This document shows positions 58,801 to 61,836 of a DNA stretch of 64,000 nt, in pieces (position 1 is the stretch's first letter; each line of letters starts with the position of its first letter). The stretch comes from Yuukianura sp. NJ FZ-2021. Taxonomy: Eukaryota. Made by a program: the position numbers and the translations under genes. The notes below the pieces were generated by a model, which saw nothing but the letters and a program-made list of their open reading frames with translations, was not told the origin of the DNA and ran no database searches. Location: NCBI GenBank assembly GCA_046563655.1, contig CM102284.1:9238001-9302000 (forward strand), written 5' to 3'.

Positions 58801-59543
58801 TGTAGCCAAACAGACCAATCATCATCTGCAAATTACATAAAATTTAAATAATTTTATTACATAAAATTTAAATAATTTTATATTATATTTAATTATTTAG
58901 TTTATATTAATTATATGTGTCAGTACCTTGCCTAGTGGTGGATGAACGTCAAAGAAGAAAGTACGATTGATATACCATGATCCCATTTTGCCAAAGTGAG
59001 TTTCATCCCAGCAAACATGATCTGGTTGGTCCACTTTGTAGAATCGAGTGACCATGGCTCCTGCCAAAATGACCAGGAACAGTGCCCATGACCATTGTGA
59101 CGAAAGGTCACGCTGACCTCCGGAAAGGTCACACGACCTTTTGACATTCGGCTGCTTTGACAATTCGCTTACTGCATTTGTCCTTAGCTTTTTGTTCGGT
59201 TTGGACAGTGAGGGGTCAACTGAGGTCAACTCCTTTTTGTCTACATTCGTCAACTGACGCTCTGTTTTCAGTTTTCTCTTCAAGTTCACTGGCTCAGTCT
59301 TCCTGTTTTACACAAAAGGGAAATCTAAAGTTAACATTTTAACATTTTACTAAATGTTAATCCTGCTATTTATAATTTGTAAAATATTTATAACATTTAT
59401 TTAAATTGTAATTTATAAAATATGAATTACATTTCTCAATATGCTTGAGCACTGTTGCTGTTCTGTTGGAAGTGTTGGACAGACCAGATCCACGACCTGT
59501 GCATCGTTCTCTGCCAATTGCCCCTTGGCAATTTACTCTCCAT
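55878..59543 (-). CDS. POMT2: Protein O-mannosyltransferase 2 (twisted); start tentative
   Basis: [68 protein letters not shown]-domain YLHSH and [54 protein letters not shown]. Confidence 0.95.
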
Positions 59544-60066
59544 AACAATCCAAAGACTCAACAATACAATGCAAATACACACACAAAAATTTAAAGCTGA
59601 AAGTTTCAAGTTGAAACTTTCCGAGAAAAGTTAATGAGAAGTTTTAGATTTCAAAATTTTCAGATGAAATAAAATTTGGTTCACTTTGCCGCCACTCATG
59701 ATTCTCTTTCACTTTTTATGCTTAGAAACCCACTGCCCAGTTACCTCATCAAAATTTACGCCGTTTAACTTGTGCATTTCTGTTCCATTTTAAAAAAGTT
59801 TTACAAAAAAAAAGTCGAAGATTTTGAATATTTTTTGCTAGAATTGAAGAGAAATGGTAATTTTATAAGTTTAAAAACTTGTTTAGAGCACAAAAATCCT
59901 GGTTTTTGTGAACATAGAAAAAGAGAATGTTGAAGGTCAGCTGTCAAGGTCAACCACTTGCTGCTCAAGATCACTTTGTAGAAGACGGTTGACCAAATAC
60001 ATCTTCACTTCAACATTCAAGCTTCATTTGAACTTTTTAATTAGTGCTAAATTTTTAAAAAAGAAA

Positions 60067-61836
60067 ATGGACCATCAAAAACCAATTTTATTTTCCTATT
60101 TTAGAAGTTCGTGCAGTTGGAGGGTTCGGATAGGTATTACTCGCTTAATCAATTTCTTAAACTTTCTTAGAATTTCAAAAAATTTCGTTCATGTTTTGAA
60201 AATATTAATTTGTTTGTTTCTGCCTGGTTTTTAGTTTTGGCGTACAAAGGAATTGACTATGACAAGAATTTCGTCAATGTATTGAACAAAGAGCAGGTCA
60301 GAGGTCAACAAATTAACAAAAAAATGGGGATAAATTGAAAATTTAAAATTTTGAAAATCGTAAATTTTAGAATTCTGCGGAATACCTGGAGCGTAATCCC
60401 ATGGGTCAAGTGCCTGTTCTGTTCATCAATGGACACACGCTCACTCAGTCGGTCAGTTTTAAAAATTTTTCAAAAAACTGAAATTTTGAAAAACTAAAAA
60501 AATAGAACAAGTTGAGAAATTGACCCCTGTGACCTCCCATGTCTTTTTTGTAAGATGGCAATCATGGAGTACTTGGAAGAGATGTATCCAGAAAAACCAC
60601 TTTTGCCCAAAGATCCTCTCCAGAGAGCCAAAGTAATTGTTAAATTATTTAAAGTTTAATTACATTTAAATTAATTTATTACCCTAGCGAATCGTCACCC
60701 CCGATCTCAGCTGAAATCGACAATTACCCTAGCGAATCGCCACCCCCGATCTCAGCTGAAATCGACAATTACCCTAGCGAATCGCCACCCCCGATCTCAG
60801 CTGAAATCGACAATTACCCTAGCGAATCGTCACCCCCGATCTCAGCTGAAATCGACAATTACCCTAGCGAATCGCTACCCCCGATCTCAGCTGAAATCGA
60901 CAATTACCCTAGCGAATCGTCACCCCCGATCTCAGCTGAAATCGACAATTACCCTAGCGAATCGCCACCCCCGATCTCAGCTGAAATCGACAATTACCCT
61001 AGCGAATCGCCACCCCCGATCTCAGCTGAAATCGACAATTACCCTAGCGAATCGTCACCCCCGATCTCAGCTGAAATCGACAATTACCCTAGCGAATCGC
61101 CACCCCCGATCTCAGCTGAAATCGACAATTACCCTAGCGAATCGCCACCCCCGATCTCAGCTGAAATCGACAATTACCCTAGCGAATCGCCACCCCCGAT
61201 CTCAGCTGAAATCGACAATTACCCTAGCGAATCGCCACCCCCGATCTCAGCTGAAATCGACAATAATTGTCGATTATTACAATTATTGTAATTAACTAAA
61301 TCAGGTGCGAGAAATCTGTGAGATTGTAGCTTCCGGTATTCAGCCGATACAAAACAATGCAGTTATTCTGAAATACTCGAGCGATGACGAAGGGAAGCGT
61401 CAGGAGTGGGCTAGCTACTGGATTGCCAAGGGATTTGCTGGTAATTACTTTAATTTCAATGTAATTACTTTGTAATTACACTTTGTAATTAAGTGTAATT
61501 AGTTAATTACTTTGATTAATTCACGCCTCAATTAAATTTATTTGAAGCCTTGGAGAAAGTACTGGCCAAGTCCTCCGGGAAGTATTGCGTTGGAGACGAT
61601 GTGACGCTGGCTGACTGTTGTCTTGTGCCACAAATCTACAATGCTGGAAGGTACAGAGGTCAACTGAGGTCACTCTTTGTTAATTGTTGGTGTTAATTAG
61701 TTAATTAACTTCCAGATTCAAAGTGGACATGAGTCAATATCCAACCATCAACAGAATCAGTGCTGAGTTGAATCTTCTGGAAGCGTTCAAAGTGTCTCAC
61801 CCTTCAGTCCAGCCTGACACACCACCAAATCTATAA
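60067..61836 (+). CDS. GSTZ1: Glutathione S-transferase zeta / maleylacetoacetate isomerase
   Basis: [17 protein letters not shown] (zeta SSC motif), [62 protein letters not shown]; seven exons. Confidence 0.96.
60679..61264 (+). repeat. 45-bp minisatellite, 13 copies, in GSTZ intron 4
   Basis: (TTACCCTAGCGAATCGYYACCCCCGATCTCAGCTGAAATCGACAA)13; only the GTC/GCC/GCT site varies. Confidence 0.97.

Follow-up and report, generated by a model that had tools for sequence, protein, structure and literature searches.

A head-to-head POMT2-GSTZ gene pair in Yuukianura sp. NJ FZ-2021 and its possible descent from the bilaterian ancestor

POMT2 acts in protein O-mannosylation in the endoplasmic reticulum, and GSTZ acts in tyrosine catabolism. 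An earlier note on a stretch of DNA from the arthropod Yuukianura sp. NJ FZ-2021 (assembly GCA_046563655.1, contig CM102284.1, positions 9,238,001 to 9,302,000) had placed the two genes side by side in divergent orientation and had pointed to the same order in human. The locus raises the question of whether the arrangement goes back to a common ancestor with chordates or arose here independently. In the present study, we analyzed the whole stretch of 64,000 nucleotides (hereafter the window) using open reading frame (ORF), family profile, tblastn and splice-site analyses. We found that POMT2 on the minus strand and GSTZ on the plus strand were immediate divergent neighbors and that both were intact. 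With a probability of roughly 0.55, the pair was inherited from at least the bilaterian ancestor and has been held together by a compact divergent promoter. We infer that common descent of the arrangement and promoter constraint are both likely.

Identity and integrity of the two genes

The divergent arrangement claimed earlier was borne out by family matches, tblastn and splicing. The minus-strand gene was described by the following features.

55878 to 59302, minus strand: POMT2 ortholog, coding exons 2 to 15, with the stop codon at 55878-55880; a short upstream exon is predicted besides
58927 to 59302, minus strand: POMT2 exon 2, with a variable N-terminal tail, the first transmembrane helix and the WDETHFGK loop (PMT profile positions 6-52)

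On this strand, 14 stop-to-stop ORF segments from 55878 to 59307 carried the POMT2 domains in order. In the family profile search, the PMT, MIR and PMT_4TMC domains were collinear and nine of the ten submitted exon ORFs were matched; one exon match fell 1 bit below the Pfam cut-off, the query being only a piece of the gene. The final exon (55878-56009) matched positions 169-202 of the 202 positions of PMT_4TMC, and tblastn with arthropod and amphioxus POMT2 proteins gave coverage from 59232 to 55881. The gene looks intact, because in-frame GT-AG joins were available for each of the 13 introns that separate the 14 segments; the junctions were ambiguous at 5 of these 13 introns, and the model given here is limited to the span and the unambiguous exons. 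Exon 2 had the acceptor CAG/G at its start (59302) and the donor AAG/GTACTG at 58927/58926, and WDETHFGK was present in its ORF (58897-59307). The first luminal loop of the family features an acidic DE motif, which WDETHFGK supplies here.

The protein search with POMT2 exon 2 returned 858 matches at E <= 0.001 among 948 candidates. Among the best 120 of these 858 matches, 97 were named; none was named POMT1 and almost all were named 'protein O-mannosyl-transferase 2', the sources being insects, mites, a millipede, amphioxus and armadillo. Judged by these names, the gene appears closer to POMT2 than to POMT1 orthologs. The PMTs represented in the PDB were fungal only. POMT2 of the springtail Orchesella cincta was the most similar over the length of the gene (54.9% identity, 835 aligned columns), and no near-identical POMT2 protein was found in a large protein database, in which this species is accordingly absent. 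One matching protein of 1383 aa from the ostracod Notodromas monacha (P0100) carried POMT2 domains fused to SNF2, helicase-C and HARP, which suggests either a SMARCAL1-like gene adjoining POMT2 on the same strand or a mis-joined model.

The plus-strand gene was resolved into seven exons and one intronic tandem repeat.

60067 to 60133, plus strand: GSTZ exon 1, with the ATG at 60067 and the first part of the SSCSWRVRI zeta motif (maiA profile 1-16)
60235 to 60296, plus strand: GSTZ exon 2, with acceptor ttttag/ and donor CAG/gtcaga; the sole exon piece of the seven without an NCBIfam match of its own
60371 to 60451, plus strand: GSTZ exon 3, GST_N (maiA 40-66; splice sites)
60555 to 60632, plus strand: GSTZ exon 4 (maiA 67-93; splice sites)
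60678 to 61264, no strand assigned: 45-bp tandem repeat of 13 units in GSTZ intron 4 (Tandem Repeats Finder: 98% matches, score 1139)
61305 to 61440, plus strand: GSTZ exon 5 (maiA 92-139; splice sites)
61548 to 61650, plus strand: GSTZ exon 6, GST_C (maiA 139-176; splice sites)
61716 to 61836, plus strand: GSTZ exon 7 (maiA 174-210), with the stop codon TAA at 61834-61836

The N-terminal motif of zeta-class glutathione S-transferases (GSTs) is SSCxWRVRIAL. The spliced model, with seven exons, six canonical GT-AG introns and 215 aa, contained SSCSWRVRI at residue 14, and the residues S12, S13, C14, S15, R17, V18 and R19 were invariant across eight aligned GSTZ proteins. The maleylacetoacetate isomerase equivalog TIGR01262 (maiA) was the best NCBIfam match for six of the seven exon pieces, collinear over positions 1-210 of 211, and the maiA bits of the pieces added up to 193.8 against a cut-off of 171.05, a piecewise sum that is indicative only. 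The PDB matches of exon 5 were the maleylacetoacetate isomerases 4igj and 2cz2 only, and all functionally named protein matches of the gene were maleylacetoacetate isomerase or GST zeta. The hexamer AATAAA was located at 61855-61860, past the stop codon.

The identity of the spliced GSTZ to two decapod shrimp GSTZ proteins was 67% and 65%. In a tree of 33 rows, it formed a clade with the two decapod proteins (support 99/94), and its end branch was 0.58 as compared with a median of 0.23. The grouping assigns the window to a pancrustacean arthropod. The earlier note had named a recently relocated GSTZ paralog as one outcome that would undo its proposal; the gene found here has six introns and groups with its decapod counterparts. 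A retrocopy or a divergent paralog was ruled out by the multi-intron structure together with that grouping. By its predicted structure, GSTZ is an ordinary intron-bearing ortholog.

The apparent adjacency could also be produced by a mis-join, or one of the genes could be a dead copy. Repeat copies were present on either side of the pair (55550-55785 and 62243-62508), and the tandem array in GSTZ intron 4 spanned 587 bp. Features of both kinds can hamper assembly, but nothing specific was found in favor of such an artefact. Set against it, the window contained no N, both genes were intact with canonical splice sites, and the interval of 0.5 kb between them was unique. The flanking repeat family had at least four copies in the window, so it did not mark this segment. 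An artefact was therefore considered very improbable.

Start codons and the interval between the genes

The GSTZ start at 60067 given by the earlier note held up. It was the first in-frame ATG after a stop codon, and the N-terminus aligned with the GSTZ consensus start. Exon 1 ended at 60133 and was followed by GT at 60134-60135, and 60135 was also where the region described in the earlier note ended. The predicted GSTZ start is solid.

The tentative POMT2 start at 59543 fared less well. The ATG was present, but its frame closed after 35 codons at TGA 59438-59436, a stop that precedes the likeliest splice donor. According to the donor enumeration, joining 59543 to exon 2 would require an atypical donor (GTCTGT, GTGGAT or GTCGTG). 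The other donors in POMT2 and GSTZ, collected by eye, were GTAAGT (twice), GTAATT (twice), GTACTG, GTACTT, GTACGT, GTACAG, GTAACT, GTATTA, GTTGGA, GTCAGA (twice) and GTCAGT. Because of the acceptor CAG/G and the in-frame TAA at 59310-59308, the start of exon 2 is fixed at 59302. Within exon 2 no ATG precedes the first membrane helix, so the start codon would lie in an upstream exon. Two alternatives were found. In the first, the donor AAT/GTAATT at 59431/59430 yields a start codon AT/G that is split by the intron, with the start at 59432; the join reads AT/G AAG ACT and continues as MKTEPVNLK. In the second, the ATG at 59749 is used with the donor GAG/GTAACT and an intron of 442 nt. The start at 59543 is thus doubtful on sequence grounds, and the split start at 59432 or the ATG at 59749 are better candidates. 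The features of this region were as follows.

59303 to 59430, minus strand: putative POMT2 intron 1 of the split-start model, AT-rich, 128 nt (donor AAT/GTAATT, acceptor AACAG/G)
59431 to 59543, minus strand: exon-like POMT2 5' leader with the ATG at 59543 and the 35-codon ORF to the TGA (translation and donor enumeration)
59544 to 60066, no strand assigned: divergent intergenic region and putative shared promoter region, holding the POMT2 ATG at 59749 and AGGTCA at 59934 and 59947

Under the split-start model, the ATG at 59543 would open an upstream ORF, which the leader seems to carry. An upstream ORF combined with a split AT/G start is a detail that automatic annotation easily misses, and a corrected model of the POMT2 5' end is one gain of the analysis.

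The gap between the start codons was 634 bp with the start at 59432, 317 bp with 59749 and 523 bp with 59543. The distance of about 520 bp reported earlier is hence right for the 59543 model and becomes 317 or 634 bp with the better candidates. The head-to-head reading is unaffected by the choice of POMT2 start. Judged from the gap of 317-634 bp, the transcription start sites (TSSs) probably lie within the 1000 bp used as a criterion by Trinklein 2004 and Li 2006, unless a 5' exon is situated beyond the partner gene. The same definition asks for adjacent, divergently transcribed genes on opposite strands, which is the arrangement seen here. Between POMT2 and GSTZ, no ORF matching a family, no Rfam family and no tRNA were found, and the approximately 0.5 kb was free of repeats. 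As for fly core-promoter words, TATCGATA did not occur in the window and GGTCACAC occurred four times, none of them noticed between the genes; these words are uninformative for a non-insect. The earlier note had proposed a shared promoter constraint. Such a constraint may exist; gaps of this size are usual in the genome.

The hexamer AGGTCA/TGACCT was the most over-represented hexamer of the window, with 138 occurrences on both strands as compared with 53.6 expected under an order-3 Markov model (z = 11.5). Examples were found at 57341 and 56472 on the minus strand and at 57575, 57737, 60295 and 61657 on the plus strand. The DR1-like 12-mer GGTCAAAGGTCA occurred 15 times (6 on the plus and 9 on the minus strand); its flanks were unrelated, and in most cases A-rich sequence stood in front of it. 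All five copies of AGGTCA in GSTZ were intronic or at exon/intron boundaries. Some copies in POMT2 and GSTZ stood right after a 5' splice site (GAG/GTAAAGGTCAAAGGTCA, GAG/GTCAAAGGTCA, CAG/gtcagaggtca and AAG/gtacagaggtcaactgaggtca), and others stood near the 3' end of an intron in the opposite orientation. The motif resembles a repeat of nuclear-receptor half-sites, and a role in splicing, a role in transcription and a genomic quirk are all candidates.

Common descent, coincidence and inertia

The human head-to-head order given in the earlier note was confirmed in Li 2006, in the DPG table and in Davila Lopez 2010, so that the vertebrate pair is already contained in three published lists of bidirectional pairs. 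In Li 2006, human GSTZ1 (+) and POMT2 (-) form head-to-head pair 501, with a TSS distance of 137 bp and a coding sequence (CDS) distance of 488 bp; the mouse distance is 212 bp, and the chicken pair is listed under 'H2H Orthologs'. The human TSS distance is 5 bp in the DPG table, and Table S5 of Davila Lopez 2010 gives '<0' and places the pair at rank 566 among 924 candidate bidirectional promoters. A preprint reports that GSTZ1 is flanked by POMT2 and TMED8 across 20 mammals.

Outside the vertebrates, POMT2 and GSTZ1 of amphioxus share scaffold 245 with a neuroglobin-like globin, all 'in close proximity' (Ebner 2010); the linkage is one of proximity only, the available text giving neither adjacency nor orientation, which counts against inheritance of the full arrangement. 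Amphioxus supports at least a chordate age of the linkage. A globin also adjoins POMT2 in Trichoplax, in sea urchin (Droege 2012) and in vertebrates. In a full-text search of the literature, the POMT2/GSTZ pair was not found for arthropods, and amphioxus was the only invertebrate returned; a full-text search for GSTZ1 with bidirectional promoter gave nothing on a POMT2-GSTZ1 promoter. There was no POMT2/GSTZ1 entry in the supplements of Robert 2022, where gene symbols are possibly not used, or in those of the hemichordate genome paper, and the supplement of Marletaz 2018 contained no POMT2 and one irrelevant GSTZ1 row. The arthropod instance thus appears to be unpublished, and the amphioxus linkage and the vertebrate pair are known.

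To what extent could the match to human be expected by chance? The following figures are our own arithmetic and not the output of a tool. If gene order were scrambled freely, a given gene would have a particular single-copy gene as its neighbor with a chance of about 2/15,000, or roughly 1e-4 per gene. The chance would be approximately 10-20 times higher, about 1e-3, if both genes merely remained within the same ancestral linkage group, of which there are about 20, and the matching divergent orientation lowers it further. Irimia 2012 reports 595 conserved ancestral microsyntenic pairs (CAMPs), of which 593 are dated to Bilateria. The numbers kept are 448-492 in amphioxus and Lottia, 46 in flies, 54 in Ciona and 12 in nematodes, and 54.8% of the ancestral pairs are 5'-5' in human; the 5'-5' pairs are attributed there to shared regulatory sequence. 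Because retained pairs number tens to hundreds per genome, the prior odds for a match to the human head-to-head pair lie strongly on the side of inheritance over accident. POMT2-GSTZ is probably one more of several hundred known ancient animal gene pairs.

If the pair was inherited, the ancestor shared with chordates would already have had POMT2 and GSTZ head to head, and the pair would be a CAMP of 5'-5' orientation. The cause of its survival would be mechanical and not functional. Both core promoters would be packed into a few hundred bases, and a breakpoint between the genes would sever one gene from its promoter and would be selected against. Co-function of the two enzymes would be unnecessary. 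A stronger version is about evenly balanced between holding and failing: a bidirectional pair of bilaterian age, set within an older globin-POMT2-GSTZ block, may have retained one and the same head-to-head layout, with a sub-kb gap, both in this arthropod and in amniotes for more than 500 million years with no shared pathway.

Several results weigh against inheritance and favor coincidence, that is, the genes becoming neighbors independently here, with a chance match arising when many windows are compared with the human order. In the available tables of Davila Lopez 2010, the pair is listed among 64 eukaryotes for chicken, human and mouse only. It is unreported there for five fishes, Xenopus, Ciona, two nematodes, Aedes, Anopheles, Drosophila, Daphnia pulex, Nematostella and Trichoplax; these negatives rest on early draft annotations (Daphnia pulex v1.0, Nematostella v1.0) and a strict adjacency rule, under which adjacency is easily missed, and come partly from lineages with scrambled genomes. 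Fugu has both orthologs, but in the available data of Li 2006 they fall outside the 83 pairs, of 348, that are still head to head in this fish. The window is the sole protostome sequence in which the pair was seen.

Insects were compared by a linkage heuristic, in which the longest-contig values of the POMT2 and GSTZ protein matches were read by eye for the 16 insects present in both lists; each value stands for a 90% cluster, and equal values do not amount to adjacency. The values differed in 13 of the 16 insects (11 of the 12 Drosophila species, Trichogramma pretiosum and Belonocnema kinseyi). They were equal in Tribolium castaneum (25,071,153), Anastrepha ludens (185,090,897) and Drosophila suzukii (93,255,888). 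The D. suzukii value of 93 Mb conflicts with the 11 other Drosophila species and may be an effect of clustering or assembly. The identifier TC033711 of Tribolium POMT2 was tried as a clue to position and judged useless, as it belongs to a re-annotation series. The heuristic supports non-neighboring genes in Drosophila, and Tribolium and Anastrepha are candidates for retained linkage. The non-linkage in Drosophila stated by the earlier note thus agrees both with these values and with the absence of Drosophila from the pair holders in the available tables of Davila Lopez 2010. Flies retain only 46 ancestral pairs, and loss in Diptera is therefore expected.

The surroundings also favor coincidence. 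From 43 kb to the window end, the gene order was M1 aminopeptidase (-), WS/DGAT-like (-), lipase (+), PDCD10 (+), POMT2 (-), GSTZ (+) and RMI1-N-like (+), the last being a weak match to the RMI1 N-terminal OB-fold. The conserved block comprised two genes only, its flanks PDCD10 and RMI1-N-like including none of the human 14q24.3 neighbors, and no globin, TMED8-like or GOLD-type domain was found in 27 flanking ORFs. On the coincidence reading, a compact genome would place every neighbor within 1 kb and a quarter of neighbors head to head. Two of the six junctions at 44-64 kb were head to head with sub-kb gaps, the second being WS/DGAT-like (ATG 50104, minus strand) and lipase (ATG 50846, plus strand) with 741 bp between the first ATGs. 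Such spacing is ordinary here; less expected by chance is a partner, GSTZ, that agrees with amniotes in identity and orientation. Since short divergent spacing is a trait of the compact genome, it is no evidence per se of a shared promoter. Nonetheless, by our own arithmetic, the expected number of pairs adjacent by chance in both of two animal genomes is approximately one or fewer and lower still with orientation, as compared with the retained pairs of Irimia 2012, and the amphioxus genes are also close together. Coincidence was consequently regarded as unlikely.

A further possibility is that the adjacency is ancestral and has persisted by inertia without selection, the few-hundred-base interval being a tiny target for breakpoints in slowly rearranging lineages. 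The patchy distribution fits this idea in that it tracks the rates of genome scrambling, with losses in flies, nematodes, tunicates and teleosts. In addition, the enzymes are functionally unrelated, and human co-expression was significant in one of three data sets (Jurkat, r = 0.49, p = 0.012; Li 2006). Inertia is countered by the orientation of retained pairs. Human-Fugu retention was 23.9% for 5'-5' pairs as compared with 13.7-15.2% for same-strand pairs at matched distance (Li 2006), and ancestral pairs are 54.8% 5'-5' as compared with 26.7% same-strand (Irimia 2012). The 5'-5' excess points to selection on the class; it is a class-level result and not one for this pair. Persistence by inertia was judged to be decidedly unlikely.

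Inheritance with promoter constraint, if true, would make the locus a clean natural test of promoter architecture against co-function in the preservation of gene order. An ancestral pair would add one functionally unlinked example to the deeply conserved divergent pairs and would extend the known ancient neighborhood of POMT2 into arthropods. Such pairs help to separate genes kept together as co-regulated from genes kept together as their promoters are inseparable. No new question is opened, the general phenomenon having been described in 2006-2012.

Other features of the window and comparison with known systems

The window had approximately 39% G+C and short GT-AG introns. Farther upstream, HMG-box, mitochondrial carrier, SPRY, L51_S25_CI-B8, TAF10 and kinase fragments were found. 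The WS/DGAT-like acyltransferase and the lipase of the second head-to-head pair are both enzymes of lipid metabolism. A stop-free frame of 907 codons at 3-2723 on the minus strand, open at the left window end, had no Pfam match at E <= 1e-4. An interspersed repeat of approximately 180-270 bp, with copies 78-84% identical, was present in the following copies.

14462-14724, 26507-26740, 55550-55785 and 62243-62508, all in the same orientation: interspersed repeat copies, two of which flank POMT2-GSTZ

This repeat had no Pfam, Rfam or tRNA match. POMT2-GSTZ as a unit bounded by the repeat was considered and rejected in view of the number of copies in the window.

The closest known counterpart is the POMT2-GSTZ1 pair of human, mouse and chicken. 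In both cases orthologous genes are immediate divergent neighbors at sub-kb distance, the human CDS distance of 488 bp comparing with a start-codon gap of 317-634 bp here. The surroundings differ: at human 14q24.3 the flanking genes are NGB beyond POMT2 and TMED8 beyond GSTZ1, whereas PDCD10 and RMI1-N-like occupy these positions in Yuukianura sp.

The pair also resembles the synteny of NGB-like globins with POMT2 described in the available portions of Ebner 2010 and Droege 2012, in which the neighborhood of POMT2 is kept from placozoans and echinoderms to vertebrates and includes GSTZ1 in amphioxus. Unlike that synteny, no globin adjoins POMT2 among the 27 flanking ORFs here. These portions concern the other side of POMT2 and discuss neither arthropods nor a head-to-head promoter.

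Finally, the locus can be compared with the 5'-5' CAMPs such as HSPD1-HSPE1. In the available text of Irimia 2012, these are unrelated genes arranged head to head across a very short interval in distant phyla, with a shared or bidirectional promoter as the proposed cause. Under the rule used there, a pair must be linked in 4 or more of 11 major lineages, and POMT2-GSTZ is documented in three, namely vertebrates, amphioxus and this arthropod. HSPD1 and HSPE1 are functionally linked and strongly co-expressed, which sets them apart from POMT2 and GSTZ1. To our knowledge, the latter two are neither functionally linked nor strongly co-expressed.

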